Source: a virus. From it: a stretch of DNA of 64,000 bases. The notes beneath the pieces are model-generated. The model saw only the letters and a program-made list of their open reading frames with translations. It was not told where the DNA came from and made no database searches. Both the position numbers and the translations under genes were made by a program. Positions within the stretch are counted from its first letter, which is position 1, and each line of letters begins with the position of its first letter. The DNA lies in the IMG/VR virus record IMGVR_UViG_3300035684_000003, positions 1,878 through 65,877 of that record. One strand, written 5' to 3'. Positions 15,092 to 37,939 of the stretch are shown in pieces.

Positions 15092-16459
15092 ATGCTGACT
15101 TCGGAAGCCATTGCATACGCTGAACTAGGGCGAATATTCCGGTTACTCAATGCGAGTTTTACGGAGTTGGCATTGTGGGGCGTGTGGTTCAAAAATCGCA
15201 ACACTCCAGCCGTCGTAACTGCATCCGACAGGGGAGATGCCATTAAAAAAGCCCGTGCAACCAAGTGCGCTGGATGGGATGAAGCCGTTGTCAGCTGTCG
15301 CCAACTTAAAGGGAAATCCTTAGAGCAAGCGAAGAAAGGGAACTGGGTGAGGGAGCGTGCCAACGGAAGTGAGGAGGGTGGCTCCTTTAAGTATCGACCT
15401 CAGCTTAAGCCCAACCATGCAGAGGGGGACGATTTCCTAACGAGTGAGGATGCTTACGAAGAGCTAGTGACAAGCGCGTTCCATGTGGCATTAGACAAGA
15501 GCATCTTGTCTATAAAAGACTCTCTCTCTGCCAAGTTGGATTGGGAGGCGTTGTATCCAAATTTGGACACAACAGTTTTATCTTCTGCTCTTGCACAAGC
15601 GAATCTGCTCGGCTTGCTCGTGGGGATGTATTCCGAACGCCCCGACAGGGAGGAGACGGAATTTGCTGATGACCCCACCCGGCTGCCATTCAATGAGGCG
15701 ATCGCATATTTCCGACAGAAGCTCAACATCCCGACTCGCACATGGAAAGATATCCAAGGGGCAGAGAACGACTGGGCATTTGCAATTGCTGGCGTCACCG
15801 GTGCCGAGATGCTGCAAGACTTCCGGATGGCATTGGATAGGTACATCGCCGATGGCACGGGATTTGCTCAGTTTGCCAAGGAGTTTGATGCTATAGCTCA
15901 AAACTTTGGCTGGCAGCCCAAAGAGGGAATAGCGAGGAAAGCTGACCTAGTTGCCAAAACTAATTTTCGGATGGCTTACGCCGCAGGGCAGTGGCAGCAA
16001 CGCCAAGACCCCTTAGTAAAACAACTTCGACCTGGGTTGATGTGGCGACACCGCGACTCCCCTAACGAGCGCCCTCACCATAAGGCGATGGATGGGATGA
16101 TATTTGATGGCAATGACCCGCAGTACTCTGGTCTTGTTGGTTTTTCAGGGTTTGGCTGCCGCTGCCGACTCTTCTCCGTCCCCGCACCAGACAGAGGATT
16201 TGATGTGCTGAGCCAAACCCTGCCTTACCAGTTCCCCGATGGCAAAACGGGTGAGGTGCCAGCAGTGAAGGTTGGGGAGAAACTCTTTCCCGTTGCCGAC
16301 CCAGGATTCTTCTACACCCCTGGCGCTAGCCCAAAATCTGCTCGACCTCACCTATTCCAACAGATGCTTGGACGGCAGCCCCCCGCGTGGCAGAAACTGA
16401 TTAGGCGAGCAATTCCGCAGCGGATATTGAGGGCATTTACACCCAAAGGATTCAATTAA
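15092..16459 (+). CDS. MuF (gpF/SPP1 gp7) head morphogenesis protein with family leader peptide
   Basis: LPFNEAIAYFRQK...AFAIAGV...TNFRMAYAAGQW...RPHH...GFGCRC; N-terminus MLTSEAIAYAELG. Confidence 0.88.
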   Translation: MLTSEAIAYAELGRIFRLLNASFTELALWGVWFKNRNTPAVVTASDRGDAIKKARATKCAGWDEAVVSCRQLKGKSLEQAKKGNWVRERANGSEEGGSFKYRPQLKPNHAEGDDFLTSEDAYEELVTSAFHVALDKSILSIKDSLSAKLDWEALYPNLDTTVLSSALAQANLLGLLVGMYSERPDREETEFADDPTRLPFNEAIAYFRQKLNIPTRTWKDIQGAENDWAFAIAGVTGAEMLQDFRMALDRYIADGTGFAQFAKEFDAIAQNFGWQPKEGIARKADLVAKTNFRMAYAAGQWQQRQDPLVKQLRPGLMWRHRDSPNERPHHKAMDGMIFDGNDPQYSGLVGFSGFGCRCRLFSVPAPDRGFDVLSQTLPYQFPDGKTGEVPAVKVGEKLFPVADPGFFYTPGASPKSARPHLFQQMLGRQPPAWQKLIRRAIPQRILRAFTPKGFN

Positions 16460-16475
16460 AGGAAATTTTCCTTTT

Positions 16476-16901
16476 ATGGACGTTGAAATCGACCTATCTC
16501 AAGCCAGGACTTCATTCACTAACCTCGGAAGCGCCCTAGACGACGCGACCCCGTTGTTTAACCTAATTGGGCAGGAAATGGAGTTGAGCATTGACGACGG
16601 TTTCCGCACCGAAACCGACCCAGATAATAGTCCTTGGGCAGCGCTGACAGCCAGCTACGAAGCGAGTAAGCGACGCCGGGGTTTTATTGGCAAAATCAAC
16701 CAGCGTCGCGGTGATTTACGTGCCAGTATTACTTATAGAGTTTATCGGGATAGGCTGGAAATTGGGGCAAATGTCCCCTATTCCTTGAAGGTTCAGGAGA
16801 AGCGTCCTTTCCTTTATTCCAAGTCGGGCGGATTGGGAACAAGGGCGGAGCGCAGGATTGAACGGGTAGCAAATGATTATATTCAAAGTTTGGTTGATTA
16901 A
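16476..16901 (+). CDS. Virion morphogenesis protein (Mu gpG / P2 gpS-like)
   Basis: F.TETDPDNSPWAAL...GDLRASITY...LEIGANVPY...RPFL. Confidence 0.85.
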   Translation: MDVEIDLSQARTSFTNLGSALDDATPLFNLIGQEMELSIDDGFRTETDPDNSPWAALTASYEASKRRRGFIGKINQRRGDLRASITYRVYRDRLEIGANVPYSLKVQEKRPFLYSKSGGLGTRAERRIERVANDYIQSLVD

Positions 16902-18278
16902 ATGTTAACGAGAGAAGCTTTAGCATTTTCAGAGCTAGGACAGCTGTGGCGAGAAGTGAACGGTTCTGCGGACTTTGCTTCGCCCGTGACTGACCCGGAG
17001 GTTGTAGGTTATGTCACGACAGTTGTGCGCTCAATGATTAGAGAGCGCAATTTGGTTGTTGGGGAGATTACTGTAGATGGCGATACATTTACGGGTGTGG
17101 CACAAGCCAAGGTGTCACCTCGATTGACCAAGCGCTTTGAGTTTGAGATTTCCCCAGATAGTAAGACGTTTGGCGCTATCAACGCGGACGAAATAGAAGC
17201 CTTCAGCGAAGTTGTTGAATTTAAGGGAACAAGAAGCGGAAAAACCCTAAATTGCAAGGTTTCCCAATGCGGCGGACGTTGTTTGAAAGGGGGCGAGAAA
17301 TGTCGTCAGACGATGTCCTCTGACGAGCGCAAGGCTCACGATAAAGCGCTCAAGAAGGTGGGAACGGTCGAAACCTCTCTTGCTAAGAAACGGCGTGAGA
17401 TGAAGGAGAGCCGAGAGAAGGAAGCGGCAGCAGCTAAAGTTTCAACTAAAAAGCCAGACGAAACACCAGTAAAAAGTAAATCAAAAAAAACAACTAACAC
17501 CTCCTCCGAGACACAGGCTAAGCGCAAACCCTCTCCTAAAGACGAAGAAAAGCCTCCCAAGAAAACCTCAAATCCCAAGGAGTCTTCGCTTGATGCTTCA
17601 AAGAAAGCCAAGCCACCTTCAAAACAATTGCTGTTAGAAGAGACTGAAAAGTTCTTGAGTAATTACTCTCAAAAAGCAGCTGAATCTGAAAAGGATGGTA
17701 GCGTAGGGGGGCCTAGGCAAAGAATTGTTGAAGCTCATCGAATAATTAAAGAAGGGAGCTTTCCAAAAATGACTCCTTCAGAGCAATCAGACTTTTTTGA
17801 AACCATGAATAATGCTGGCGGCTCTAGATACAACGGAGGGAGTAACAATCCTGCTCTTATCAGTAATATCGCCGCTTTGCAACAAGAACACTTGTATGGG
17901 TCTCTTAACTCTTCTCAGAAAACAGCCCTTGTAAAAGAGGTACTTAAAAATAACTTTGGCGATATTCCTAGTGAATTTAGAGATGCCAAGAACCCTAGGA
18001 TTCAGGGGATAGCCAAAGACATGATGGAGCGGAAGGAGCAAATAGAGTCTCCTCCCGCAAAAAACTTAAATAAGGGTTCTAAAGAAAGGAATAGATTCAA
18101 ATGGATAGACAAACAGATAAACAATCCGGACATCCCAGAATCAGCTAAGAAGTTGTTAAGAACCATGCCCGTAGGTATGGCTAGACCTTTCCCCGTGGGA
18201 GGTAGTAGGACTAGCCAGAGAGCTTGGGACGAATGGGCAAAGTATGCATTAGTACAGGCGGGGTTAGATTACGATTAG
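16902..18278 (+). CDS. Leader-family cargo protein, unknown C-terminal domain
   Basis: MLTREALAFSELG leader, shared N-domain, VEF, CKVSQCGGRC...C motif, unrelated C-terminus. Confidence 0.75.
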   Translation: MLTREALAFSELGQLWREVNGSADFASPVTDPEVVGYVTTVVRSMIRERNLVVGEITVDGDTFTGVAQAKVSPRLTKRFEFEISPDSKTFGAINADEIEAFSEVVEFKGTRSGKTLNCKVSQCGGRCLKGGEKCRQTMSSDERKAHDKALKKVGTVETSLAKKRREMKESREKEAAAAKVSTKKPDETPVKSKSKKTTNTSSETQAKRKPSPKDEEKPPKKTSNPKESSLDASKKAKPPSKQLLLEETEKFLSNYSQKAAESEKDGSVGGPRQRIVEAHRIIKEGSFPKMTPSEQSDFFETMNNAGGSRYNGGSNNPALISNIAALQQEHLYGSLNSSQKTALVKEVLKNNFGDIPSEFRDAKNPRIQGIAKDMMERKEQIESPPAKNLNKGSKERNRFKWIDKQINNPDIPESAKKLLRTMPVGMARPFPVGGSRTSQRAWDEWAKYALVQAGLDYD

Positions 18279-18287
18279 GAACAACGC

Positions 18288-20085: not shown

Positions 20086-20090
20086 AAAAT

Positions 20091-22175
20091 ATGCTGACAA
20101 AAGAAGCGATCGCATTTGCTGAGTTGGGGAGGCTAGCGAGAGAATCAAACCTCTCTGAATCCCTCACAGATTCAAGGCTGTTGTCCGAAATCAAAGAGTT
20201 TTTAGAAGAAGGATTTGACAGTGGTATTGACCGAATCGTTAGTGCGACTCGACAAGCAAATGGCGATATTAAAGGAGTCTTTGAGGACAGTGTAGGGTTT
20301 AAGAGTCGCCGCTTCTCGTTCGTGGTCGATGATAACGGATACGGGTACAAGCCGATAAATCCCAACCCTAAGTTTACTGAGGAAGAGATTGAATTTGCCG
20401 CCAGTGGAAAACAACACAAGTGTAATCCGTCTAAGTCTCACCCCTGCAAAGGTCGCTGCATTTCTCTAAACAAGGAGTGCCGCCCAGACTCGACACCGGA
20501 GACTAAAAAGAAGGCTAAAGACATCAAGGATAAGGCTGCGGCTAGCGTAGGAGTATCCTCTAGAGCGCCAGAAGCTAAAGTAGCGATGCCTGACCCAAAA
20601 CAAAAAAAAGAGAAGCTCACTCAATTTCCTCAATCCAAGGTTGGCTCAATCAAATCTTATGAAGACTTTGAACCAGTTGCGCTCTATACAATCGCTAAAC
20701 TTTATAAAAACAGAGAAGGAACTGACAACTTTATTCCTATCTACAAAATCAGGAGAGAACTCGGTGAACTGGTAGACAGAAAACAGTTCCAAGAATATAT
20801 GTTCGCCATCCAAAATAAAAGAGCTGTTACGGTTTCTCAAGGGTCGGTTGAAGATAGCGCTCCTGATAAAATCGCTGATTCGCTGGTCACCAAAACGGGA
20901 ACAATCCGAACTCATATTGAGATTAAGGATACAAAAGAGCTAGATAAATACTTGACCCCAAGTATTAGGAAAAAAGTTGAAGAAACCTTGAAAGAGCGCC
21001 CTCCCCTTGACCCCGCAGGAAGGGCAGGGAAACTAAAAAATGGATCTAAGGTTAAAGACCAAGACGAAGCAGAGCGGCTTATTGAGGAAGCGAGAAAGCG
21101 AATCGATGAAGACTTCAATTATCAGGGTTCCGTTCCTATCGCCAAAGTTCGTCAAGCATTGGGCGATAGGATTGATGATTTTGACAGGGTTCTGAAAGAT
21201 GCCCAGGCAAGAGACAGGGTTACTCTTGAAACTGGGGCAGACGCCTCAGAAGAAGACAAAAAGGCGGGGATTAAAAACTCATTTGGGGAAATACGCTCTT
21301 ATATGCGGGTAGGGGATTCGCCTGCGTCCGCTATGACTTCGGCTGACCTTGGTAAGATATCTGCGCCATCACCCTCAACCGCCAAGAAAGCGACCGAGAC
21401 TAAACAGGTAGAACCAAAGCCTAAAAAAGAGCCGAAACCCAAGGCAGAGCCTAAAGCAGAGCCACCTAGAACACTCGCCAATCCGACACAGTTATCTACC
21501 TCCAGAGATAAGGCTCAAATCGCCGCCTCATTAGATGCCTGGAAAAAAGAGACCGAAAAAATGGATATTGTTAACAATATCTATGTACTAGAAAGCAAGA
21601 TAAACCGGACAAAACAATGGCTCAAAGACTTAACCCCACAGCAAAGAGAAAGTAAAGCGACTGACGTAGCAACTCTTGAATCTAGGCTGCTAAAGAGCGA
21701 GGACGAATTAAGACGCGGAAAAGAGTATTACAAAGATAATGAATATCTAAAAGTAGACCCTGCACGTTTTTCCGCTTCTCATGACATAAGCGAGTCTGTT
21801 TTAAAAGGAAGCGCCGACCGAGGGGTTAAGCAGTTTGGGGTGTACGACAAAAACGGGAATCTTCAAGCCGCCGCTAATTACTCCGTTAAGAAAAATAGCG
21901 TTTATATTGATGAGCTTGCAACAGCGCCTTGGAATATCAAAGCCGGAGGTGCAGATAATCGCTCAACAAAAGGAGCAGGAACTCAAGCCGTTGTTGAAGC
22001 GGTGCGTCTTAGTAGTGAATTAGGTAAGGGGGGTAGAGTTACGCTGGAGGCACTAGAAGATGCCAAACCGTTTTACGAAAAATTAGGTTTTAAGTCTAAA
22101 AAGAGTGATGATACTCAAATGGAATTGTCGCCCAAGGCAGCCAAGGAATTGTTAGCAAAAATGGGAATCGAATAA
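20091..22175 (+). CDS. Leader-family cargo protein with C-terminal GNAT acetyltransferase
   Basis: True start ATG 20091 (MLTKEAIAFAELG); IEF; Cys4 motif; YIDELATAPWN...KGAGT...AKPFYEKLGF. Confidence 0.8.
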   Translation: MLTKEAIAFAELGRLARESNLSESLTDSRLLSEIKEFLEEGFDSGIDRIVSATRQANGDIKGVFEDSVGFKSRRFSFVVDDNGYGYKPINPNPKFTEEEIEFAASGKQHKCNPSKSHPCKGRCISLNKECRPDSTPETKKKAKDIKDKAAASVGVSSRAPEAKVAMPDPKQKKEKLTQFPQSKVGSIKSYEDFEPVALYTIAKLYKNREGTDNFIPIYKIRRELGELVDRKQFQEYMFAIQNKRAVTVSQGSVEDSAPDKIADSLVTKTGTIRTHIEIKDTKELDKYLTPSIRKKVEETLKERPPLDPAGRAGKLKNGSKVKDQDEAERLIEEARKRIDEDFNYQGSVPIAKVRQALGDRIDDFDRVLKDAQARDRVTLETGADASEEDKKAGIKNSFGEIRSYMRVGDSPASAMTSADLGKISAPSPSTAKKATETKQVEPKPKKEPKPKAEPKAEPPRTLANPTQLSTSRDKAQIAASLDAWKKETEKMDIVNNIYVLESKINRTKQWLKDLTPQQRESKATDVATLESRLLKSEDELRRGKEYYKDNEYLKVDPARFSASHDISESVLKGSADRGVKQFGVYDKNGNLQAAANYSVKKNSVYIDELATAPWNIKAGGADNRSTKGAGTQAVVEAVRLSSELGKGGRVTLEALEDAKPFYEKLGFKSKKSDDTQMELSPKAAKELLAKMGIE

Positions 22176-22327
22176 TGGTTGATAAAAAATTTATTAAAGA
22201 AGTTCAATATTTAGAGGATAAACAATTTCCTCTTGTTGGAACATATCGCAAGCCTGAACCGTTTAAAAGTATGGAGGAAGCTTTAAAAGCATTAAATGAA
22301 GGGGGGAGTGTTCTTCCCCGCCAGTGA
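22175..22327 (+). CDS. 50-aa ORF coupled to the GNAT gene (candidate immunity), not in the ORF track
   Basis: TAATG stop/start overlap; MVDKKFIKEVQYLEDKQFPLVGTYRKPEPFKSMEEALKALNEGGSVLPRQ. Confidence 0.55.
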   Translation: MVDKKFIKEVQYLEDKQFPLVGTYRKPEPFKSMEEALKALNEGGSVLPRQ

Positions 22328-22407
22328 TGACGGGGATTTCTATCTATAGTCTTTGATGCAAGCGGGGGAGGATGTCAACAAAGGAAATTTTCCTTATGTC
22401 CCACCAT

Positions 22408-22776: not shown

Positions 22777-22818
22777 GTGGGTGCGTCCTGTGTAAAATTC
22801 ATCCTCAAAGATTGCATT

Positions 22819-23114: not shown

Positions 23115-24506
23115 ATGTCCGATGCGTTGAAGTGGCTAGAAATATTCAGGTCAGGCAAGCGAACCTCGTCTAATGGGGTGACTCGCGATTATTCCGCTTC
23201 AGATTTAGACCAAGCGGTTGAAACCTACAACCCCGACAATTTCAAAGCTCCGCTAATCGTCAGCTACCCAGCACACAACACTGGGAGCTATTCAGACAGT
23301 GACTTACACAAAAGCCAGTTGGCATTCGGCTACCCCGAAAAGCTCAAGCGAGTAGGCGACAAGCTCATGGGCGGGTTTGAGAAAATTTCCCCCAAAGTGG
23401 GCGAGTGGATTCGCAATGGGGAAATTTTAGGATTTAGCAGCAGCTTCTACCTACCTAACTCCCTTTATAATCCCTATCCCGGTAAGCTCTCCTTGCGCCA
23501 CGTCGCCGCCTGCGGAATCGACCCGCCAGCGGTCAAAGGAATGTCCCTCCCGGATAACTTCACCCATCCAATTGCAGAATTTGAAGATTACTCAGAAGAC
23601 CAAGACGACACAGTCGAGTTTGGACTGGGAGCCGAAGCGGACGAGGAAACCCTTGAAAATGCGCGGATTGGAATACAGGTTTGGAATGCCTTAAAAAATG
23701 TTGCGAGCTTCTCTGACGCCGCCTCCTTCATGGCAATGGGAGATGGACACAGCCCAATCGCCTCCCTGTTTAAAGACTTTTATCAACGCTCCCGCGACCG
23801 GTTTATTGAGGAGAAAGGGGTGGAAGAGGCGGACAAGATTTATCCCACCTATGTATTAGACCAGCTTGCCGTGGTGACCTCTCAGCCCTCTCCCGCCTTT
23901 GCTACTTGGGATGATATCTCGCGGCTGCAATCTCAAATCGACCGATTGAGGATGTCAGGTGGCGACGAAGAGACGGAGTCCAGCAACTTAAAGGATTTCT
24001 TGAACGACTACAGCGAGGAGGAGGAATTTATGCCAAGCGAAGCCGAATTTGAGGAGATGAAGGAGCGACTCGACGACTTAGAGACAAAAGCTAGGTTGTT
24101 GACGCGTGAAAACCAACGCCTGAACGCCGAACGCGAGACGGATAGAGTCACCGCTTTTTGCGAGCAGTTAGTTCGCGATCGCAAATTACTCCCCACCCAA
24201 AAAGACAAGGAAGTTCGCTTCATCCTTTCTTTGGATAACGCCAGCACTGCCGACTATGGGGAAGAGGGTGAGCTTACCCCTCGCGATGCCTACATGAATA
24301 AGCTCTCTGGTGGGCGGGAACTTTGGTCTAACAAGCAGATGCCTATTGGTCCAGAAGACGCGCCGATATTTTCGGAAAAAGCTCCCGATGGCTTCGACGC
24401 TAAAAGTGCTGCTCAAGGCAGACAAATTCAGTCTTACGCCAAAGAACATAATCTCAGTTTCACTGAAGCGATGGACGCCCTTATTGAATCCGGAGCGTTG
24501 AGATAA
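23115..24506 (+). CDS. Mu-like prohead protease/scaffold (gpI-like)
   Basis: WLEIFRSGK...APLIV...FG....L...SSSFY...LRHVAACGIDPPAVKGM followed by an acidic coiled-coil scaffold. Confidence 0.85.
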   Translation: MSDALKWLEIFRSGKRTSSNGVTRDYSASDLDQAVETYNPDNFKAPLIVSYPAHNTGSYSDSDLHKSQLAFGYPEKLKRVGDKLMGGFEKISPKVGEWIRNGEILGFSSSFYLPNSLYNPYPGKLSLRHVAACGIDPPAVKGMSLPDNFTHPIAEFEDYSEDQDDTVEFGLGAEADEETLENARIGIQVWNALKNVASFSDAASFMAMGDGHSPIASLFKDFYQRSRDRFIEEKGVEEADKIYPTYVLDQLAVVTSQPSPAFATWDDISRLQSQIDRLRMSGGDEETESSNLKDFLNDYSEEEEFMPSEAEFEEMKERLDDLETKARLLTRENQRLNAERETDRVTAFCEQLVRDRKLLPTQKDKEVRFILSLDNASTADYGEEGELTPRDAYMNKLSGGRELWSNKQMPIGPEDAPIFSEKAPDGFDAKSAAQGRQIQSYAKEHNLSFTEAMDALIESGALR

Positions 24507-26960: not shown

Positions 26961-27652
26961 GATTCTCACATTTTGTCGAGCGATTGCGACAAATCAACCC
27001 CCGAATTACCCAGACTCAAGCAAGAAGAGTGTGGGAAGCCTTTTTGCCATTCCCCATAGAAGAAGCGATAAATGGCCGCATTGCTTCAGTTGGGGTGCGA
27101 TCGCTCAACTTAATGAGCGACCCTTACGGCAACGAGTCGAGGGGCAGAACTCAGGCGGCTCACTGGGTGGCATACCAAGGCAGTTCTTATCCAGATAGCG
27201 GCAGCGCATTACTTCCAGGGGAATCGCACCGACAGCCAAGAGAACTGGAATTCCACCACTATGTGGAGGTGGAAGATTTACGCCGCGACTATCAAGCGTG
27301 CTTACTGTTACACGAATGGCTGATGGCAATACTCGCGGGTTTTTGCCCTCCTGGCGTGCCGGGGGTAGCTAGTCCCTTAAAGCTTGTTGGGGATGGCTTA
27401 ATAAGTTCGCGCTCTGAAGGTGAAACTCTTTATCGCTACCGAGGGCAGTACAAGATTACCTGCAATTGGAGACCCGCCGACGTTCCGGGATTGCTCGACG
27501 TTTCGGGATTACTGGGTGAAACCGGCGACGGAGTAGATTTGTTCGTCCCAGAAGCTCTAGCCGTGGGAATATTCCGCTCCCCAGTGGAGCAAGTTGGAGA
27601 GTCGCCCGTCAGTCCGAAGTTTACTGACTTGGAGGTCGAAAATGAACCATAG
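26942..27652 (+). CDS. Putative neck/tail-terminator protein
   Basis: Position after the gp36-like gene; LAGFCPP, YRYRGQYKIT. Confidence 0.5.
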   Translation: MGGKFLRFSHFVERLRQINPRITQTQARRVWEAFLPFPIEEAINGRIASVGVRSLNLMSDPYGNESRGRTQAAHWVAYQGSSYPDSGSALLPGESHRQPRELEFHHYVEVEDLRRDYQACLLLHEWLMAILAGFCPPGVPGVASPLKLVGDGLISSRSEGETLYRYRGQYKITCNWRPADVPGLLDVSGLLGETGDGVDLFVPEALAVGIFRSPVEQVGESPVSPKFTDLEVENEP

Positions 27653-29204
27653 TCAAATCCTGGCATTTGCGGAACTAGGAAATACATTCAAGCGGCGTCG
27701 CTCGCATGGAATAGTGTCGCATTCAGAACCCGTCACTAATCCAGGGGTCATAAGCTACGTGTCGGCAGTGGTAGGTTCCATGATTAAAGAGCGCAATTTA
27801 AGTATTGGCAAAATCACCCTCAATGGCGACACGTTTACGGGTGTGGCACAAACCAAAGTGTCGCCACGCTTAACTAAGCGCTTCAAGTTTGAGATTTCCC
27901 CGGATAGTAAAACTTTTGGAGCTATCAATACAGAAGAAATAGAAGCATTTAGCGAGATTGTGGAATTCAGGGGGAAAGGTTCGAGGGCAGGGAAAACTCT
28001 CAACTGCAAAGTTGCACAGTGCGGTGGCAGATGTTTGAAGGCAGGGGAAGAGTGCCGACTGACACGAACAGATGCAGAAAAGCAGGCTCACTCTGCTGCC
28101 CTAAAAAAGACTAAATCTCCGAACGCTTCCAAATCGGAGCAAAAGGTGGAAGAGAAGAAACCCGATAAGGCAATCGATGCTCCTCCTCCAGTGGTAACAG
28201 GTGGGCTGGTTCGCGTATCGAATCAGCTCACTAAGTCTGGTGACTCTAAAAATAACAATCAACCTTCTGCTAGAAAAAGCGCAAAACAAGAAGATATCGA
28301 TAATAAGTATGCTTCTGCCTCACCCACGGGGAAAGACATTGAGGCATGGAAAAAAGATACCCTCATCTCTCATGCCAGTCCAGAAAGCTTGGCTCAAAAG
28401 GACATGATAGATAAATATCTTCTTGATGGGGGAAAGCGTTCTTGGGATGGCTTGCCCGATTATGTCAAAAAAACGGCTGTAGACAAAGACTCGCTGATAG
28501 ATTCAACCGTTCGCTTTCAAAGAGAACGCGATGAATCTTTTATCCCAAGATGGGAAAGTTACACAAAGTACTCTCCCGCTGAGAGAGAGAAAATAGAAAA
28601 AAAGATAGCCAATCCTCGCACAAAAGAGGCTGATAAAAAAAGGCTTTCTCAAGACCTCAAGGATGACCGCGTCGCCGCCGAGGCATCAGCAAAACGCCAC
28701 CTAGAAAGAGAGAAAAAATCAGACGAGCAGCTAAAAAAAGAGCTAAAAAAAGAATTTGACGAGGCAGCGGAAGCTAAGCAGGCTGAATCAAAAAGGATTC
28801 GGGATAAAATTGAGGCTGGAGACAAAGCGACAATTCAAGACCAAGCAAACCAAACTTTCAAACTCTTTAATTTTGAAGGCACAAAAGGGCAGCCCAGCAC
28901 CGTCAAAGCGCAGAATGAAGCTATTAAGAAGCATTTAAAAAATGCAGCCAATCAAGATACTCCCCGAAAACTTTTAAAAATAAGCTCTAACGCTTCCGTT
29001 GCCGACATTAAAAAAGCTTATAGAAGCGCCGCTGCCAAAGCTCATCCAGATGCAGGGGGAAGCGCGGAAGAATTCCGCAAAGTTAACGAGGCTTTCACTC
29101 AACTGCGACAAGAAATGGATTTTGCCGACTTCTGGGAATTAATGGAATTTCAAGAATCAATTACGTTTAACGAGTTCAATTCAGGCATCTGGGAGGACGC
29201 ATGA
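27642..29204 (+). CDS. Leader-family cargo protein with C-terminal DnaJ J-domain
   Basis: ATG 27642 after GGAGG; ILAFAELG; VEF; Cys4 motif; LLKISSNAS.ADIKKAYRSAAAKAHPDAGGSAEEFRKVNEAF. Confidence 0.8.
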   Translation: MNHSQILAFAELGNTFKRRRSHGIVSHSEPVTNPGVISYVSAVVGSMIKERNLSIGKITLNGDTFTGVAQTKVSPRLTKRFKFEISPDSKTFGAINTEEIEAFSEIVEFRGKGSRAGKTLNCKVAQCGGRCLKAGEECRLTRTDAEKQAHSAALKKTKSPNASKSEQKVEEKKPDKAIDAPPPVVTGGLVRVSNQLTKSGDSKNNNQPSARKSAKQEDIDNKYASASPTGKDIEAWKKDTLISHASPESLAQKDMIDKYLLDGGKRSWDGLPDYVKKTAVDKDSLIDSTVRFQRERDESFIPRWESYTKYSPAEREKIEKKIANPRTKEADKKRLSQDLKDDRVAAEASAKRHLEREKKSDEQLKKELKKEFDEAAEAKQAESKRIRDKIEAGDKATIQDQANQTFKLFNFEGTKGQPSTVKAQNEAIKKHLKNAANQDTPRKLLKISSNASVADIKKAYRSAAAKAHPDAGGSAEEFRKVNEAFTQLRQEMDFADFWELMEFQESITFNEFNSGIWEDA

Positions 29205-30718
29205 CAGCACCTTTACTCAATCGGGGGACTCCTGGCTATGAAATCTTTGTTGATAGCGCCGGTCCACAAATTCCCGTCGTTGCGGTTTACAGTCGGTGCT
29301 ATTTACTGATAACAGCCACCGCTTTCCTTATTGCTCCACTGGAATTTGTTGCCGTGGGGTCGATGGATGACTTTGTCAATTTATTTGGCTCCTCCGACGC
29401 CCTCGTCCTCAACAGCGTTGAGAATTATCTAGAAAACTTCGACCAAGGGCTGTATGTGGCGCGAATCGTTCCATCCGCCATCGCCACCGTTACCATCGGC
29501 ACCCTGACGGCGGGTGCCACCTACACGGTGACCATCAATGGAACAGCCATCTCTTTCACTCTCGACGTTACGCCGACGATGGCAGAGGCGGTTCTTGCTG
29601 CCATAACAGCTATCAACAACACGGAAGCGACTAACCTCGCAGTTGAGGCTGAACCCAACCTCAATATGGATGGCACGCCCAACTATTCAACTGGTGTATT
29701 CCGCCTACGCTCCAAAAATGGAAGAGCATTTACCGCGACTGGCAGTGCAAACGTGTCAGTGGGAACTGTTACCACTCCCGCCACTCCTCAATTCTGGGAT
29801 TGGATTGCGGCTTTCAAAGAAATTGCGCGGGCTTACGATGACGACGCGCTCGGCTTCCTGTGCGCCCCTCAAGCCTTCTACAACACGGCTAACCAGTTTG
29901 AACGAACTCAAATTGGTAACAGCATGGCGGAACACGCCAGGAGTTTGCGTTGGGTTGCGCTTTTAGATCCACATCAACCGAGTGTCATCGACCACCCACG
30001 CAAGGCTAAAGCCGATGCGGCGGGGTATATTGCGCCCCAAGGTCACGGGTATTATTCCTATCCCTACTTCATCGACCGGGATAGCGATTATGTCGCGCCA
30101 TCAACCGCTATAGCATCTGTAGGGCTCAAGCGCTATTACGAGCAGGGGATTCAGGAGCCTCCTTGTGGACCTCGCTGCGTTCTTAATGGAATATCAGGGG
30201 TCGCTTACAAGCTGGATAAAGCCCAAAAGGTAGATTTGGCTGAAAGCTCGGTCAATATCAATATCTTCGAGCGCGGTCGGGGTGCGATGCCCTACGACGA
30301 CTTGACCCGGAGCGAGAATCCGGCATTTCAGGCAATCAATGCAGTCGTGGTGCTCAACAGTTTCGTAGAGACGGCTGAGCGCACGTTCCGAGCCTCTGAC
30401 CTAATCCACACTTCGGTAGACAGTCGCGGCAAGTACTACCTGCAAGTCCAATTGCTACTAACTGGCGTGGCTCAACTGTTCTATGCGGCTGGTTGCCTGT
30501 ACGGCATCCGACCGGGCGATGCTTACCGAGTGGAATGCAACGCCGAGATGCAGGATGCCACCAATCTCGAACAGCGAATAGTGGTGGCTCGCACATTCTT
30601 GGTGCCAGCTCCCACCGCACGCCGATTGAGAATCTATATTTATCGGGTAGCAATTGACCAGATGAACCAAGCGGTTGCCATCGTTGGCGGCAGTACACGC
30701 GTTCTTGCTGCGGGTTAA
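29201..30718 (+). CDS. Tail sheath protein
   Basis: TPGYEIFV...SMDDFVNLFG...GFLCAP...VAPS...PP.G...INA. Confidence 0.85.
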   Translation: MTAPLLNRGTPGYEIFVDSAGPQIPVVAVYSRCYLLITATAFLIAPLEFVAVGSMDDFVNLFGSSDALVLNSVENYLENFDQGLYVARIVPSAIATVTIGTLTAGATYTVTINGTAISFTLDVTPTMAEAVLAAITAINNTEATNLAVEAEPNLNMDGTPNYSTGVFRLRSKNGRAFTATGSANVSVGTVTTPATPQFWDWIAAFKEIARAYDDDALGFLCAPQAFYNTANQFERTQIGNSMAEHARSLRWVALLDPHQPSVIDHPRKAKADAAGYIAPQGHGYYSYPYFIDRDSDYVAPSTAIASVGLKRYYEQGIQEPPCGPRCVLNGISGVAYKLDKAQKVDLAESSVNINIFERGRGAMPYDDLTRSENPAFQAINAVVVLNSFVETAERTFRASDLIHTSVDSRGKYYLQVQLLLTGVAQLFYAAGCLYGIRPGDAYRVECNAEMQDATNLEQRIVVARTFLVPAPTARRLRIYIYRVAIDQMNQAVAIVGGSTRVLAAG

Positions 30719-31978: not shown

Positions 31979-34642
31979 ATGGCAGTTGTCGATTTAGTAG
32001 TTCGCCTCAGAGATAACGCCACAGCCGGGATTAGGGGTATTAGTGGCGCTCTGTCGGGTTTGGGCACTTCTGCGGCGGGAGCGACTGGGCAGACTCAGGG
32101 GTTGAGTGGTGCGATCGCAGCTGGCGTGCTCCAAGCCAATGCCATCCAGTTTGCTATTGGCAAGGCGACTGAGGCGATAGGTTTCCTCAACAGTAAGTTT
32201 GAGGAAGCAAAGTCTTTGCAACTGGCTAACGTCACGGCTGCCACGACGTTTTCCTCGCTAACCGGGCAAAGCTACGAAGACGCGGCAAAATTCATCGATA
32301 ACATGAATGCTCGCCTCGCCAAGTCTGCGGCGGCGCTCCCAGGTGCGACGCAAGATTACAAAAACCTGGCAATCGCGATTCAAGATAACGTCCTCGAAGC
32401 TTTCAAAGACCCAGCGGGAAAGCTTAATCAAAAGGGGTTTGAGGACTCACTTTCAAGCATTGCCGAATCTTACGGCGCGTTGTCCGCCGCCTCTGGTGTC
32501 GCAGTGGGAAACACCACGCTTGGACTCTCGAAGATGTTGGCGGGTTCGAGTACGGCAGAACTAAGGCAAATTCAATTTTTCGAGCAGAATGCAGTCATCT
32601 TGAACGAGGTTGATAAGCGCTTGAAGGGGATGAACAAGTCAGCCCTCAAAGACCTCGATATCAAAGAGCGCGTCAAGTTGATTCAAGAGGTGGGACAGAA
32701 GTTCATCACGGAGGATTTCAAGAAACAGGCAGGTGCGACGGCAGACGCCCTGCTACAAAGTTTTCAATCCACCATGTTCGACCCCACCACTGGAGTGTTC
32801 GGCATCATGCGCGACCTCGACCTCAACACGTCGGGCGTGCAGTCGGCATTCACGTCGATGAACGAAATCCTCAATCAGCTGATTGGTCCTGCTGGGGCAT
32901 TTACTCTTGTGGGTGAGGTTCTGCAAGCAGCAGGCATCAACCTCCCCGACCCGATGCTAGCGCTTAAAAATAGCCTCGATTTTGTCTTAGGTGGCATCAA
33001 AAGAGTAAATCAAAGTTTAGCAGGGCTTAGAGACGCCTTTAATGGACCGGGCATAGATTTTACTTGGATAAGTTACATAATTGCTAACCGAATAGCAAAG
33101 CTGGGAGATGGCTTAGCTTCTGCCTTTGACACGCTTTCAGCAAGGGCAGCTCCCCTATTCAACCAAGGCGTTGCCATTATTTCGGAGCGACTCAAAGACC
33201 CAGAGCAGTTTTATGTCCTTGGTCGCGCCCTGGGGTATGTAGTTGGCCGCGCAGTTGGGTCGGCGGCAATATTCCTTGCCCAAATTGACACGGGTGCGGT
33301 GTTGGTCGCCATAGGTCGAGCAGCTCTTGGAATTAATGCGGCTATTGTGGGCGCGATTGAAGGGGCTGTTCTCGGAGTAATTCCGGGACTTGTGTCCATT
33401 TTTAAAATCCGCGTCAACGAGATGGCGGAAACCTACTATTACTTGTTCGAGAGTTTTGCCGCACCGGCGCGAGAAGCGGTTCAAGCTGGCATCGGTCGAT
33501 TTGTGTCCCTAGCTGGGGGGATAACGGCAAAAATACAAGAAATAGCAGGCTCTATTGGCTCAGTATTAAATGACATAGGAAGCGTGATTGGAAGAGGAGC
33601 CGCGTTCCTTGTAGCTGGTATTGGGCAAGGGATAGCCCAATACTTAAACTTCCTTTCTTCCACAATCCCGGTCCGAATTGCCTCGGGCACTTTGGCAGTA
33701 GCAGGGACTTTGGTTTCTACTACATTTCGAGTCGTTTCGGTTCTAGCAGGTCACATCAACGCGGCTATAACAGGAGCGGTAGTCGGGGCAGCGCTTGCAA
33801 TCCAAGGCGCTTTCTCTGCCCTAGCTACCATAGTCGGCGGGGCAATTAATAGCACAATAGCTCAAGCCACGAATTTAGCTGTTAGCGCTTTCGTTCCTTT
33901 GGTCAATACCATCAATGGAACCCTTAATACGGCAACTGCAACGGCAACCGCCACGGCTGGAGGAATAAACAGCGCCCTTAATTCGGGGATGGCTGCCTTG
34001 CAAGCTGGATTTGACATTGTATCGACTGCGGTGTCGGATGCCGGAAACCGCGCCATTTCCTTAATCAAGCCCCCTATCGACCTTGTCGCCTCCTTCCTCG
34101 GACAAGTTGCCAACACCATATCCAGCCTTGTTAACGGGGTCATAGCGATTGTCAACAAAGCCACCTCTGTGGTCAATAGTGTCAATTCTGCTATCAACAG
34201 TTTCAACCCAGTTCCTGCCATCCAGTCGGGTATCCAAGGCGCGGGACAATCTGCGATTAACTCAATTAATTCCCTTTTTGGCGGCGCTCGTTACTCCGGA
34301 CACATTGGAAATGCGGCGGGGGGATTTCTGGGGAAACTTTTAGGAGCCGCCAAGCAAGAAACGGCTAATATGCCAGCAGGCGCTCAACTCCTGATAGCCA
34401 ATAGCTCAGAAACTATTCTGCCCTCTGGGGGATTAGGGGGACTAGTTCGGGGAATTGGTTCAATGCTCACACCCACAGCTGTTGCGCCTTCAATCGGTTC
34501 GCCTATTAAGGGAGGAAACACCATCAACCTAACGCTTACAATCAATGCACCATCAGGAGATGCCGGTGCGATCGCCTCTGCCACTATCGACGCAATCCAG
34601 CGATTGTTTGAGGCGGAACTAGGCGCTCAACTGGGGAGTTAA
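31979..34642 (+). CDS. Tape measure protein
   Basis: 887 aa, Ala/Gly-rich with helical repeats; canonical position. Confidence 0.88.
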   Translation: MAVVDLVVRLRDNATAGIRGISGALSGLGTSAAGATGQTQGLSGAIAAGVLQANAIQFAIGKATEAIGFLNSKFEEAKSLQLANVTAATTFSSLTGQSYEDAAKFIDNMNARLAKSAAALPGATQDYKNLAIAIQDNVLEAFKDPAGKLNQKGFEDSLSSIAESYGALSAASGVAVGNTTLGLSKMLAGSSTAELRQIQFFEQNAVILNEVDKRLKGMNKSALKDLDIKERVKLIQEVGQKFITEDFKKQAGATADALLQSFQSTMFDPTTGVFGIMRDLDLNTSGVQSAFTSMNEILNQLIGPAGAFTLVGEVLQAAGINLPDPMLALKNSLDFVLGGIKRVNQSLAGLRDAFNGPGIDFTWISYIIANRIAKLGDGLASAFDTLSARAAPLFNQGVAIISERLKDPEQFYVLGRALGYVVGRAVGSAAIFLAQIDTGAVLVAIGRAALGINAAIVGAIEGAVLGVIPGLVSIFKIRVNEMAETYYYLFESFAAPAREAVQAGIGRFVSLAGGITAKIQEIAGSIGSVLNDIGSVIGRGAAFLVAGIGQGIAQYLNFLSSTIPVRIASGTLAVAGTLVSTTFRVVSVLAGHINAAITGAVVGAALAIQGAFSALATIVGGAINSTIAQATNLAVSAFVPLVNTINGTLNTATATATATAGGINSALNSGMAALQAGFDIVSTAVSDAGNRAISLIKPPIDLVASFLGQVANTISSLVNGVIAIVNKATSVVNSVNSAINSFNPVPAIQSGIQGAGQSAINSINSLFGGARYSGHIGNAAGGFLGKLLGAAKQETANMPAGAQLLIANSSETILPSGGLGGLVRGIGSMLTPTAVAPSIGSPIKGGNTINLTLTINAPSGDAGAIASATIDAIQRLFEAELGAQLGS

Positions 34643-34678
34643 AAAAAGGAAAATTTCCTCTCACTGTGATATTAAGGG

Positions 34679-35971
34679 ATGCTAACCAAAGAAGCTAGGG
34701 CATTTGCCAAAGTTGGGCAGTTATTCAAAGAGTTGAATTTTGCGGACTCAGGGGAACAAGCTGTCACCGACCCAGAAGTAGTAGGCTACGTCACGACAGT
34801 TGTGCGCTCAATGATTAAGGAGCGCAATCTAGTCATTGGCAAAATCACCCTGAACGGTGACACGTTTACTGGCGTTGCCCAAACCAAAGTCAACCCTCGA
34901 CTGACTAAGCGTTTCAAGTTCGAGATTTCCCCAGACAGCAAAACGTTTGGCGCTATTAACTTAGAAGAAATAGAAGCGTTCAGCGAGGTTGTCGAGTTCA
35001 AGGGGACAAGAGACGGAAAAACCCTAAACTGTAGCAAGACTCCTCCCTTTACTCAATGCGGCGGACGTTGCTTGAAGGGGAAGGAGAAGTGCCGCCAGGA
35101 TATGTCGCCAGAAGAGCGCAAGGCTCACGACAAGGCGCTCAAGAAAGTTGGCACGGTTGACACCTCTCTTGCTAAGAAACGGCGGGAGATGAAGGAGAAC
35201 CGCAAGGGAGAGAAAGCCCCCGAACGGCGGAAGCCCTCCCAAGGGCGGACAAGCAACGTCCAACAAAACGACCTGGCTTCCACACTTAAGCATCCTAGGG
35301 AATATACGCACTTGGGGTCTGGGATTGAAGCCGAAGTTTATTTGGACAAGGGTCCACCCAAGAGAGCCTTAAAATACTATTCTTCTGCTCAATCTGTAGA
35401 TAAATCAGTTTTTGAGGGGATTCGTATTGGAGGAGAATTAGGAATTGGTCCGAAATTGTTAGGCGAAGCTCAGGTAGAAGCAGAGGGGCTTAAAGGAAGG
35501 AAGCAACAGGTAATCGCAATGGAGTTCTTAGACGGATTTACAGTTGGTGTCCGTCCAGCTCAAGAGTCAGCAAAATACGACCCGAAAAAGGAAAAACAAG
35601 AGCAGCAGACCTACAACAAAAGTTTCTTAGAAACCTTGAAGAAAGGACACTCCAATCAATATATTTTTGATGACCTTCACGAAGAGAATGCGATGGTCAA
35701 CGCAAAAACAAAGGAGATAAAATTTGTTGACTTGGGGGGACTACGAAAAGGAACCTATGAAGAAATGACCCTACAGCTGCTTGACAAGTATTCACCGCGC
35801 CCGTTGTCGGCGGAGATTTTAGACACACACATTAAAGACAAGGGAGACAAAAAAGCGGCGAAGGAAATACAATCACTACAAAGAAAAATCCTTAACCGAA
35901 AAGACAAGCCAATTACGGAAGAGGAATACAAACGTATGTTTGACCGAGTCTATGAATTAGCTGAGGTTTAA
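34679..35971 (+). CDS. Leader-family cargo protein with C-terminal protein-kinase-like domain
   Basis: MLTKEARAFAKVG; VEF; Cys4 motif; LGSGIEAEVY, ALKY, MEFLDG, DDLHEEN, FVDLG. Confidence 0.8.
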   Translation: MLTKEARAFAKVGQLFKELNFADSGEQAVTDPEVVGYVTTVVRSMIKERNLVIGKITLNGDTFTGVAQTKVNPRLTKRFKFEISPDSKTFGAINLEEIEAFSEVVEFKGTRDGKTLNCSKTPPFTQCGGRCLKGKEKCRQDMSPEERKAHDKALKKVGTVDTSLAKKRREMKENRKGEKAPERRKPSQGRTSNVQQNDLASTLKHPREYTHLGSGIEAEVYLDKGPPKRALKYYSSAQSVDKSVFEGIRIGGELGIGPKLLGEAQVEAEGLKGRKQQVIAMEFLDGFTVGVRPAQESAKYDPKKEKQEQQTYNKSFLETLKKGHSNQYIFDDLHEENAMVNAKTKEIKFVDLGGLRKGTYEEMTLQLLDKYSPRPLSAEILDTHIKDKGDKKAAKEIQSLQRKILNRKDKPITEEEYKRMFDRVYELAEV

Positions 35972-35977
35972 TCAATA

Positions 35978-36139
35978 ATGAAGACAGAAGATTGGCTAAA
36001 ACTTAAAAAACGCAGGCTAGAAATAGAGTCTCAACTTTTTAAGGAAGAATCTCCTAAGTTAAGAGAAGAACTTAAGTCTATCAACAGTCAAATAAAAGCA
36101 GACCCTCCAACATTAGAGCAGGTATACACCTCAATTTAG
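35978..36139 (+). CDS. 53-aa ORF after the kinase gene (candidate immunity), not in the ORF track
   Basis: MKTEDWLKLKKRRLEIESQLFKEESPKLREELKSINSQIKADPPTLEQVYTSI; fills the gap, AT-rich. Confidence 0.55.
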   Translation: MKTEDWLKLKKRRLEIESQLFKEESPKLREELKSINSQIKADPPTLEQVYTSI

Positions 36140-36159
36140 CAAGAGGCAGGAACTCATAA

Positions 36160-37632
36160 GTGTTGACCAGAGAAGCTAGAGCCTTTGCTAAAGTTGGGCA
36201 GTTATTCAAAGAATTGAGTTTTGCCGATTCAGGGAAACAAGCCGTCACCGACTCCAAAACCTTGTCCCTGGTTCAATCTGGGTTACAAAAAAGCTTGGGA
36301 CGGCGAATCACCCTTCTAGCTGGGGTAACCAAAACAGACGCTGGCACCTTTAGCGGGGAGTTTCAACAGTACGTTAATCCCCGACTCACCAAACGCTTTA
36401 GCTTTACCTTTGGCGAAAATGAGATAAGTTTTAAGCCGTTAAACCCTGACGACATTGAGCGATTTAGCGAGAGAGACGATGAGGCGGATTTTGCCCGAAC
36501 CTCTAAAAGCGGTAGAGCGGGTAAGTCACTCAACTGCAAAGTAGAACAGTGTGGTGGACGTTGTCTCAGAGGCGGGGAAAGCTGCCGCCTTACACCTACA
36601 GAAGAACAGAAAAAACTATGGGCAGCGGCTAGCGGGAAAAATCTAGCGACTAAGCCAGATACCTCTCTTGCCAAGAAGCGACGGGAGATGAAGGAAAACC
36701 GCGTGCGCATAGCAGAAGCTGAGAGAGCAGAAGCCGAGAAAGCGTCTCTGAGAAAGAAATCTAAGCAATCTGCTCGCTCTATCAATTACAAAGTAGACCG
36801 CTCTGACCCCGACGCTTTAATTAAGTTAGGCGCTGATTTTTCGGCTAAACACCTTAAGCTTCGAGATATTCCCCCATCAGCCAGAGAAAACAAACTATTT
36901 GAAGAAAAAACAGCACTGGGGAAAGAAATAATGCAAGCGCGAGAGGCAGGAGATATGCGGAGAGTATCAGACATTGCCCCTAAATTCTTTGCCAAAGAAA
37001 CCGCGTATTACAAGGTTCAAAATGAGCGAATCGACAAGATGGATGCTCAGTATGACAAATTCAGAGAAGAAATTATCAAGAAACACGGGGTAACACAGCA
37101 ACAAGCGGAAAAAGCTATAGAAAGAATCACCCTTGATGATTCTTTGGGGAACAGCAAGAACCAAGTTAAACAGGATTTCACCGACTTCTATCTATTGACC
37201 GGGGGAAAGGGGTTTGGCAGGTTAGACGAAATTGCTCAAACAAGTGAAAGAGCTTACGCCAGCAGAAGTGGAATGATAAACGTAGGATTTAGAGTTAATA
37301 GAACCACAAATCTGCACGAACTGGGGCATCACGTAGAATATGGGTCGAATGAAGTTATAGAGGCTTCAATCAAATGGCGAAATAGTCGCGCAACGGGTGC
37401 CCCAGAACAGTTGAGCAAGTTATCGCCAGGGGGTAGATACGATGAAAACGAAATCGCCTTTCCTGGAAAATACGTTACCCCTTACGTAGGCAAAGACTAC
37501 GGAAGCGGAGCCACGGAAGTTGTATCAGTGGGGATTGAAAACTTCACTGATGGTCGCTCCATGAAAAACTTTAAAGAAAAAGACGAGGGACATTTAAATT
37601 ACATATTGGGAGTAATATTGAGTGAAGATTAG
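36160..37632 (+). CDS. Leader-family cargo protein with C-terminal zincin (HExxH) metallopeptidase-like domain
   Basis: TTG start, MLTREARAFAKVG; ADF; Cys4 motif; NLHELGHHVE plus downstream TEVVS. Confidence 0.78.
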   Translation: MLTREARAFAKVGQLFKELSFADSGKQAVTDSKTLSLVQSGLQKSLGRRITLLAGVTKTDAGTFSGEFQQYVNPRLTKRFSFTFGENEISFKPLNPDDIERFSERDDEADFARTSKSGRAGKSLNCKVEQCGGRCLRGGESCRLTPTEEQKKLWAAASGKNLATKPDTSLAKKRREMKENRVRIAEAERAEAEKASLRKKSKQSARSINYKVDRSDPDALIKLGADFSAKHLKLRDIPPSARENKLFEEKTALGKEIMQAREAGDMRRVSDIAPKFFAKETAYYKVQNERIDKMDAQYDKFREEIIKKHGVTQQQAEKAIERITLDDSLGNSKNQVKQDFTDFYLLTGGKGFGRLDEIAQTSERAYASRSGMINVGFRVNRTTNLHELGHHVEYGSNEVIEASIKWRNSRATGAPEQLSKLSPGGRYDENEIAFPGKYVTPYVGKDYGSGATEVVSVGIENFTDGRSMKNFKEKDEGHLNYILGVILSED

Positions 37633-37939
37633 CCTTCGATATAAGCCAACACGCACGGAATTTACCATAGAAGCTCAACATAATGACCCGGATAAATTAA
37701 TTGAACTTAATTTCAAAGCAAAAAACCTAGAAGAACAACCAATTGTTGACGCCTTAAAAGACAACAGCTTGAAATATGAACTTGAGAATCAATACGGTCA
37801 TTACGGGCACCGAATTGTTTTAGCTTCAACAACCAACTTAGATTTAGCGAGCGCCGTGCGTTATCTCTCCTCTTTTGAATTAATCAACATAGAGCCTCGA
37901 ATCGCGCCAATTCCGCTCCCCAAAGACGTGCAAAGTTAA
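37622..37939 (+). CDS. 105-aa protein overlapping the peptidase gene (candidate immunity)
   Basis: GTG start overlaps the 3' end of 36160..37632; AT-rich. Confidence 0.6.
   Translation: MKISLRYKPTRTEFTIEAQHNDPDKLIELNFKAKNLEEQPIVDALKDNSLKYELENQYGHYGHRIVLASTTNLDLASAVRYLSSFELINIEPRIAPIPLPKDVQS

Follow-up and report, generated by a model that had tools for sequence, protein, structure and literature searches.

The 64,000-nucleotide stretch of DNA analysed in this study (hereafter the window) comprises bases 1878-65877 of the 70.9-kb metagenomic viral contig IMGVR_UViG_3300035684_000003 from IMG/VR, and its 10.2-43.3 kb region is a single plus-strand morphogenesis operon of the Mu-like myovirus type. 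Within this operon, six plus-strand open reading frames (ORFs) starting at positions 15092, 16902, 20091, 27642, 34679 and 36160 encode proteins with a common amphipathic leader of about 19 amino acids (aa), which is followed in all but the first of them by a common carrier module and by C-termini that differ from gene to gene. When the window was translated in six frames, the leader motif [EQ][AI][ILR]A[FY][AS][EK][LV]G was detected exactly six times, always at residues 5-13 of these ORFs; the leader of the 27642 protein is degenerate. An earlier note made from the sequence of this DNA had proposed that the six ORFs share an N-terminal leader and that they lie at four separate points of the head/tail operon. 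Both proposals were borne out, as the motif occurs only in these ORFs and annotation of the operon, which is collinear and Mu-like, placed the genes at four points. In leader codons 2-16 we counted 62 synonymous but different codon pairs versus 64 identical ones; for example, Leu2 is encoded by CTG, TTA, CTA and TTG, and Thr3 by ACT, ACG, ACA and ACC. The leader is therefore conserved at the protein level and not as a DNA or RNA element.

The first of the six genes (15092..16459, + strand) encodes a MuF minor head protein, in which the leader (aa 1-19) is followed by an N-A-S-F-T-E junction, an N-terminal extension of about 170 aa, the sequence E-F-A-D-D (aa 190-194) and the MuF domain (PF04233, residues 243-360, 2.8e-12, above the cutoff; phrog_220, 3.6e-52). 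The match of this protein to TIGR01641 (phageSPP1_gp7, 2.2e-9) was below the cutoff. The remaining five are referred to as cargo genes. Sequence comparison of the second gene (16902..18278, +) revealed the leader, the carrier module, a basic linker with a net charge of +16 and a C-terminal domain of unknown function, which is common only to the P0034 protein of the sister phage G002 and for which no match was found in Pfam, PDB or NCBIfam. According to Pfam and to comparison with homologues, the leader and carrier module of the third gene product (20091..22175, +) are followed by a two-unit helical (winged-helix-like) module, a Lys/Pro-rich linker and a weakly matching GNAT domain (E 0.007); in homologues the helical-repeat module and GNAT are found apart or together. 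The stop codon of this gene is overlapped (TAATG) by a 50-codon ORF (22175..22327, +), a candidate partner, which matched no family and is not conserved beside the GNAT module in G002. The fourth gene (27642..29204, +), located directly before the sheath gene and with no partner ORF after it, combines the degenerate leader and the carrier module with a helical middle region and a C-terminal J-domain containing HPD (PF00226, 1.6e-9). The fifth gene (34679..35971, +) has a kinase-like C-terminus (weak matches to Pkinase, 3.5e-4, and PrkT, 6e-7) with visible G-loop, Lys, DxHxxN and DLG motifs. Its parts are arranged on the plus strand as the leader (34679-34738), F-A-D (34739-34747), an alpha/beta roll (about 34766-34978), a four-cysteine (Cys4) knuckle (35030-35092), a basic helix/linker (35108-35293, net +11) and the kinase-like domain (35294-35968). 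It is followed by a 53-codon helical ORF (35978..36139, +), again a candidate partner, for which no family match was obtained.

The sixth gene (36160..37632, +) starts with GTG and encodes the leader, the carrier module, a basic linker and, as judged from motif and structure model, a zincin-like HExxH metallopeptidase domain, whose H-E-x-x-H-H-x-E signature is invariant in 15 homologues. Pfam gave no match for the protein, PDB sequence searches with this C-terminus and with that of 16902 retrieved nothing, and the HExxH profile search found only marginal FtsH matches. The AlphaFold2 (AF2) model of the HExxH domain had a predicted local distance difference test (pLDDT) score of 95, and its top 50 fold matches in the PDB were M34 zincins (PPEP-1/Zmp1, lethal-factor catalytic domain) and one putative zinc metallopeptidase, at template modelling (TM) scores of 0.5-0.55 and E-values of 0.3-1, which are not significant. 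The model suggests that this C-terminus is a lethal-factor/PPEP-like zincin corresponding to the "MPTase" of phage polyvalent proteins, for which the same lethal-factor/PPEP-type relationship has been reported (Iyer et al., PMC5512222). The HExxH gene is overlapped by a gene for a 105-aa protein (37622..37939, +; homologues 24-46% identical, with a conserved G-x-Y-G-H). An overlapping gene for a partner homologue of about 100 aa follows the HExxH cargo gene in four of four contexts at different genomic positions, namely in the window, in the sister phage G003 (after TerL), in a 4.9-kb contig and in a 74-kb Logan contig, where the pair is surrounded by baseplate genes and lies on the opposite strand. 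Thus, the HExxH gene and its partner appear to move as one unit, as enzyme-inhibitor or toxin-immunity pairs do, and the partner product is a candidate inhibitor, immunity protein or chaperone. Taken together, the C-termini diverge in the way the earlier note had listed them (unknown, GNAT, J-domain, kinase and HExxH, with MuF carried by the 15092 protein instead), the GNAT and kinase matches being weak in the window proteins.

The part shared by the five cargo proteins had been described as an N-domain of about 90 aa, an [ED]F site and a Cys4 motif. All of these were present in all five proteins, but the shared part is longer, as it also takes in a conserved basic helix after the Cys4 motif; the resulting module spans about 145-175 aa at 27-79% identity. 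The pattern C-x4-8-C-x-G-R-C-x6-C matched five times in the window, all within these proteins. The DNA identity among three of the five module genes is only 72-78%; the modules are diverged paralogues and not recent copies. No model in Pfam, NCBIfam or PHROGs covers the leader or the carrier module. In the AF2 model of the module in the 34679 protein, computed with an alignment of 141 family members (pLDDT 85, predicted TM score 0.74), the leader helix (residues 4-18) is followed by a second helix (32-45) that packs against an antiparallel sheet of four strands (51-92), the Cys4 knuckle and two basic helices. Three short motifs are conserved: [LV]-[NSED]-F-[AS]-[ED] directly behind the leader, F-[SA]-E downstream of the sheet and [ED]-F upstream of the knuckle, the second and third of them sitting in a lower-confidence stretch between sheet and knuckle (pLDDT 60-64). 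The alpha/beta roll resembles cystatins, VirB8 and NTF2-like proteins with VIA-align Z scores of 5-6.5, values that common arrangements also reach; a Foldseek search of the PDB with the module model gave no match at E<=0.001, and an ESM Atlas feature search with the module gave no usable match. The five cargo proteins have an isoelectric point (pI) of 9.1-9.5, and the linker after the knuckle carries a net charge of +8 to +16. The Cys4 knuckle probably binds zinc, and the basic helix and linker probably lie on packaged DNA.

The carrier domain is a previously unnamed one with 165 representative members, which were retrieved when a profile built from the five modules was searched against 1.84 billion representative proteins; 95 of them matched at E<1e-10. 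We were able to map the module in 154 representatives, N-terminally in 133 and internally in 21. In an alignment of 141 members C118, C131 and C138 were invariant and C127 was present in 140. At least five leader classes occur among the homologues. The earlier note had also claimed that the effector domains are swappable, and the profile search uncovered further C-terminal swaps: a tally over 142 homologue C-termini matched 20 Pfam families, among them DnaJ (11), GNAT (about 10, best E 2e-11), ADP-ribosyltransferases (ARTs; 9-12), PARP (2), DUF3626 (8), ParB_N (3), PI3/4-kinase (3), HipA-like (2-3), Pkinase (2), M90 (2) and ATLF (1). Lipase-like C-termini are also found elsewhere in the family. 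The C-terminal modules of the window reappear in other proteins in new combinations; the HExxH domain, for instance, recurs in 14 further proteins, including one portal fusion. The homologues thus do not always carry the same C-terminus, which the note had named as an outcome that would speak against it. Single-linkage BLAST clustering of the C-termini was dropped, as 72 proteins became chained via shared modules and linkers, and the Pfam tally and reference-module classes were used instead. The HExxH, GNAT, helical-repeat, J and ART modules were each encountered behind several leader classes as well as in fused forms. This implies that address and cargo assort independently.

The combination of an N-terminal trafficking part with a variable, toxin-like C-terminus, together with a MuF-module-ART fusion (P0019), could also be explained by polymorphic toxins of the MuF type, which lysogens would release with, or as a load of, phage particles and which would kill or inhibit competitors that lack immunity instead of aiding infection. 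The small linked partner that always accompanies the HExxH cargo, and the small ORFs after the GNAT and kinase genes, are what such toxins would lead one to expect. However, most effectors have no conserved downstream partner (none follows the GNAT module in G002, and none the J-domain gene), J-domains and kinases are not classical toxins, and no integrase was seen in the scanned parts of the window. We therefore consider this explanation improbable.

The sister phages and the fused family members provided clues to where these proteins go. Three sister contigs are collinear with the window in the structural genes, mostly at 50-93% aa identity, and contain 2, 3 and 5 cargo genes, inserted downstream of TerL, portal, MuF, gpG, the 19660 homologue or the tube gene or immediately ahead of the tape measure gene. 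Given these differing sites in four otherwise collinear phages, the cargo genes appear to behave as cassettes. The internal copies of the module occur in the arrangements Portal_Mu-InPase-module-X (P0037 and P0040, the latter having HExxH as X), Portal_Mu-module-ART (P0054), MuF-module-ART (P0019) and InPase-module-GNAT (P0085). In G001, the homologue of aa 21-454 of the window MuF protein (82% identity) is joined in frame to the portal-InPase protein through V-N-F-A-E-S, exactly where the window has a stop codon, the 19-aa leader and N-A-S-F-T-E. As the portal fusion stands in place of the leader in G001, the leader occupies the place of a covalent portal link, and from this Rosetta-stone evidence we infer that it would bring its protein to the portal region or the prohead core. 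The G001 portal-InPase-MuF protein forms one 1043-codon frame (L015, G001:34435-38745), and ORF012 of Aphanizomenon phage vB_AphaS-CL131 (CL131) is independently a Phage_portal_3-InPase-MuF protein of 1393 aa. In G002, the MuF protein and the cargo genes share the leader variant L-I-E-A-F-A-E-L-G. In G003, MuF begins just after the equivalent of the window E-F-A-D-D (aa 190-194) and has no leader. The suggestion of the earlier note that the set is targeted by a non-MuF module was not upheld, since the module is also found downstream of MuF and of the portal; occurring after portal, MuF, InPase or leader, it is an adaptor and not an alternative to MuF. A predicted complex of leader residues 1-45 of the 34679 protein with portal aa 400-629 and the protease/scaffold protein scored 0.00 (partner pLDDT about 33) and was uninformative either way.

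The same comparison bears on the idea that the genes are morons unrelated to the virion, i.e., late cytoplasmic host-takeover or defence/anti-defence genes whose N-terminus would serve regulation, oligomerisation or sensing. Their insertion sites are indeed variable and moron-like, one Nodularia phage copy lies outside the structural genes, and repeated palindromes flank many genes. Against this stand the fusions of the module to the portal C-terminus and to MuF, the G001 portal fusion in place of the leader and the occurrence of homologues in virions, which leave this idea with very little to recommend it.

The presence of homologues in virions became evident from a cultured cyanophage, CL131, one of several with family members. 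The carrier model matched uncharacterised proteins of Nodularia phages and of Planktothrix phage PaV-LD in BFVD, and a profile search of whole records revealed five copies in Nodularia phage vB_NspS-kac65v151 and at least four in PaV-LD, including ORF061R and ORF065R beside portal and minor head genes. One Nodularia phage protein, gp119 (L020:5815-6885), has a glycine-zipper-rich, membrane-like C-terminus and is encoded near transposase and replication genes. In CL131 the profile matched four ORFs: ORF048 (1811 aa) contains one full module (E 1.6e-16) and four Cys4 knuckles, mostly ahead of lipase/alpha-beta-hydrolase-like regions, and ORF044, ORF045 and ORF047 match in the Cys4 part only (about 1e-7 to 6e-6). 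Liquid chromatography-tandem mass spectrometry of CL131 virions purified in CsCl detected 23 proteins, including all four of these ORFs (PMC6293099, SI Table 5): ORF048 was represented by 105 peptides and had the highest score, ORF045 by 123 peptide-spectrum matches (PSMs), ORF047 by 14 peptides and ORF044 by 9 peptides, and the portal, a portal-InPase-MuF fusion, was detected as well (PMC6293099). The pI values of the four proteins are 9.1-9.7 (PMC6293099). Thus, homologous family members are physically present in the virions of CL131. In ORF048 (L022:42705-48140) the Cys4 knuckles recur as a kind of punctuation, which suggests that the knuckle may be a general separator between effector units.

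Virion association alone is also compatible with proteins that are not injected, such as accessory head-assembly or DNA-condensing (scaffold-like or histone-like) proteins, whose enzymatic domains would act in the producer cell or in the capsid; the J-domain, for instance, would recruit host DnaK for assembly and the zincin would process head proteins. The basic linkers and the pI of 9.1-9.5, the location of the genes within the morphogenesis operon, a zincin of the type proposed to process polyvalent proteins (PMC5512222) and the very high PSM counts in CL131 virions, which suggest abundance at a structural level, all fit such a role. Nevertheless, structural modules that are nearly identical differ freely in how many such genes they hold, where these lie and which enzymes they encode, which is atypical of assembly factors, and ART/PARP, GNAT, kinases, ParB and HipA make up the repertoire of effectors directed at the host. 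Hence we regard a role confined to the particle or the producer cell as unlikely, if the least so of the alternatives.

We consider it likely that the products of these genes are capsid-internal cargo of a Mu-like cyanophage, built of three interchangeable parts, packed in the head and most likely ejected with the DNA. Effector swapping and capsid loading are both well supported; the support for loading, which the earlier note had proposed for the whole effector set, is indirect but strong and comes from the portal and MuF fusions, the G001 fusion and the CL131 virion homologues. The family, its modular build, the portal and MuF fusions and the occurrence of homologues in virions are shown, whereas the leader's partner, processing at the F-x-E motifs, ejection and the effector targets are inferred. 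The proteins would be made late together with the structural genes and packed into the head. The amphipathic address helix of about 19 aa, common to the cargo and MuF of one phage, would bring its protein into the prohead without a covalent link, next to the portal or the scaffold core, and in related phages covalent fusion to the portal C-terminus would do the job of this helix. The second part would be a carrier or adaptor consisting of the x-F-[AS]-E junction, the cystatin/NTF2-like roll, the flexible segment that carries F-[SA]-E and [ED]-F, the Cys4 knuckle and the basic helix/linker on packaged DNA. The variable effector would come last, being an acetyltransferase, J-domain, kinase, zincin peptidase or unknown domain here and ART/PARP, ParB, DUF3626 or a lipase-like domain, among others, elsewhere. 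The cargo would most likely exit with the DNA and act on the newly infected cyanobacterium. In these terms, the cargo proteins would be monovalent, unlinked versions of phage polyvalent proteins.

The junction after the leader may also be a site of processing. Among the 133 N-terminal copies of the module, the junction motif has F in 124, [AS] in 101 and [ED] in 105, and x-F-A-E-[SG] is also present at the junction in internal (fused) copies. The occurrence of conserved motif islands in flexible segments of variable length would point to a site of recognition or cleavage more than to a structural role, as would a motif at the junction before a different domain (from portal to MuF extension in G001). 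T4 gp21 cleaves according to the rule L/I-x-E, which the hydrophobic-x-Glu junction motif resembles. A candidate enzyme for the x-F-[AS]-E sites is the prohead protease (23115..24506), which itself has two F-[AS]-E-type motifs (aa 199 and 419), and the leader may be removed by it. Sixteen of 18 such motifs are in head proteins, a count inflated by paralogy. The major capsid protein was considered as an independent F-[AS]-[ED] substrate and rejected, because its P-F-A-E lies in a conserved structural stretch and drifts to P-L-V-E and P-F-V-K in distant homologues. A more specific proposal, which we hold only tentatively and think somewhat less probable than its opposite, is that the leader is a portable trans-acting capsid tag that replaces portal fusion, and that x-F-[AS]-E and [ED]-F form a processing code for the Mu-type prohead protease (or the packaged zincin), which would strip off the address and possibly the roll, so that the Cys4-basic-linker-effector part would stay on the DNA and be ejected. 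In that case, a packaging system like that based on the T4 capsid-targeting sequence (CTS) would have evolved independently a second time; it would account for the breakup of polyvalent proteins into separate genes and would offer a way to load arbitrary proteins into cyanophage heads.

Several observations weigh against capsid-internal, ejected cargo or against parts of this scheme. The phage is known here from a metagenomic contig and the virion data come from CL131, a siphovirus whose four matching proteins are distantly related, three of them through the Cys4 part only. The gp119 homologue of the Nodularia phage lies among replication and hypothetical genes and not in the head operon. The G003 MuF lacks a leader, so the leader is not needed everywhere for MuF incorporation. 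The carrier-domain fold matches only common alpha/beta rolls (Z 5-6.5) and provides no functional clue. As to processing, the first motif is L-S-E in the 20091 protein and absent from the 27642 protein, i.e., two of the five cargo proteins have no clean first motif, and leader cleavage has no support from any independent substrate, the capsid protein motif being uninformative.

Among known systems, the closest are the phage polyvalent proteins (Iyer, Burroughs, Anand, de Souza & Aravind 2017, PMC5512222), which share with the genes described here the portal-terminase late/packaging context, the effector repertoire (zincin MPTase, ART, ParB, GNAT, InPase), the portal and MuF fusions and the predicted packaging and delivery with DNA. 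The difference is that here there is mostly one effector per polypeptide, with five genes at four sites that are leader-addressed and not concatenated. Two or more effector domains per polypeptide are found in the portal-InPase protein and arguably in the 20091 protein (helical-repeat and GNAT); in each of the other four cargo proteins a single effector region can be recognised. The window portal-InPase, P0040, P0037 and CL131 ORF048 are true polyvalent proteins. According to the published survey, polyvalent proteins are scarce in cyanobacteria (PMC5512222), and no term for cysteine or zinc-ribbon domains was found in that paper. The MuF polymorphic toxins of temperate phages (Jamet et al. 2017, PMC5576092) likewise have a constant head-associated N-terminus, a variable toxin-like C-terminus and a position beside the portal, and P0019 is alike. 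However, Pfam scanning found no MuF domain in the five cargo proteins, the window MuF protein has no toxin domain, and a small downstream ORF is consistent here only for the HExxH type; thus, the polymorphic toxins fit less well as a comparison than the polyvalent proteins. In SPP1, gp7 is a portal-binding protein of which each capsid holds a few copies (cited in PMC5576092). The window MuF protein has the MuF domain in common with SPP1 gp7 and Mu gpF, but carries in addition the leader and the 170-aa N-terminal extension and is covalently joined to the portal in a sister phage. As with the T4 internal proteins and Alt, which carry a CTS (PMC3012670, PMC9026906), several unrelated proteins of one phage, six of six here, share a short N-terminal leader, and the proteins are basic in both systems. 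There is no sequence similarity between the two, the leader here is about twice as long, helical and followed by a large conserved carrier domain, and the protease is Mu gpI-like. What sets the present genes apart is the unnamed carrier module, the splitting of the cargo over several leader-addressed genes scattered in the operon and the concentration of the family in cyanophages.

The surrounding operon encodes Mu-like head and tail functions on the plus strand. TerL (10880-12313) is followed by the portal gene (13178..15067), whose product contains Portal_Mu (aa 45-440; PF06074, 1.7e-37) and a C-terminal InPase domain (aa 486-624; PF18823, 1.4e-25). The linker between the two has a P-F-A-D motif beside 15-nt tandem repeats, four units of which at 14521-14609 encode a P-[VI]-E-D repeat. 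A Mu gpG-like virion morphogenesis/neck protein gene (16476..16901; PF05069, 1.7e-13; phrog_26) lies between leader genes 1 and 2. Further downstream are the genes for the Mu gpI-like prohead maturation protease/scaffold (23115..24506; phrog_976, 5.8e-53), a cement/scaffold-like protein (24506-24856), the major head protein (24864-25865; phrog_1005), the sheath (29201-30718), preceded by an adaptor and followed by the tube gene, and the tape measure (31979-34642), and then baseplate and lysin genes. TerL, cement-like, sheath and tape measure genes were assigned by operon annotation. A 950-aa protein encoded at 40462-43314 has lysozyme-like and M23 peptidase regions (matches to phrog endolysin and metallo-endopeptidase families) and is probably a tail-associated lysin. 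A minus-strand insert at 22344-23037, flanked by the GNAT cargo gene and the gene for the protease, contains a 122-aa ORF and a 72-aa ORF of the XRE helix-turn-helix type and looks like a moron or regulatory cassette within the head operon. The palindrome GGAAA[A/T]TTTCC is present in 22 copies in the window versus 0.21 expected (e.g., at 15069, 16461, 19620, 22383, 25897, 26428, 31939, 34648 and 40438), mostly at late-operon gene junctions and in many cases with a CCCTTA/ACCCCTT-rich spacer after it, and may serve as a terminator, a processing site or a regulatory site. Elsewhere, the window encodes a TIR-FHA protein (670-1464), a DpdA-like DNA modification protein (44106-44981) and TnpB/IS605 OrfB (58382-59611).

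The HIP1 sequence (GCGATCGC) occurs 39 times in the window versus 0.76 expected, and enrichment of HIP1 is a signature of cyanobacterial genomes and their phages. Because HIP1 is enriched and cultured cyanophages hold homologues of the carrier module, the data point to a cyanobacterial host. A scan of genome contigs with the Cys4 pattern gave no confirmed relative, and no prophage in a named genome was recovered by it.

Effectors that are delivered with the virion act before any expression of phage genes and therefore influence host range and the opening minutes of the contest between phage and host defence. The carrier family would represent a large exchangeable arsenal of cyanophages infecting filamentous and bloom-forming cyanobacteria (the Nodularia, Aphanizomenon and Planktothrix phages and the metagenomic clade described here), and it would account for abundant proteins listed as "hypothetical structural proteins" in proteomes published for cyanophage virions. 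At the same time, the occurrence of the same cargo behind a leader or in fusion with the portal or with MuF constitutes a natural experiment in capsid addressing, and, if the leader suffices for packaging, it may become a tool for loading proteins into phage heads.

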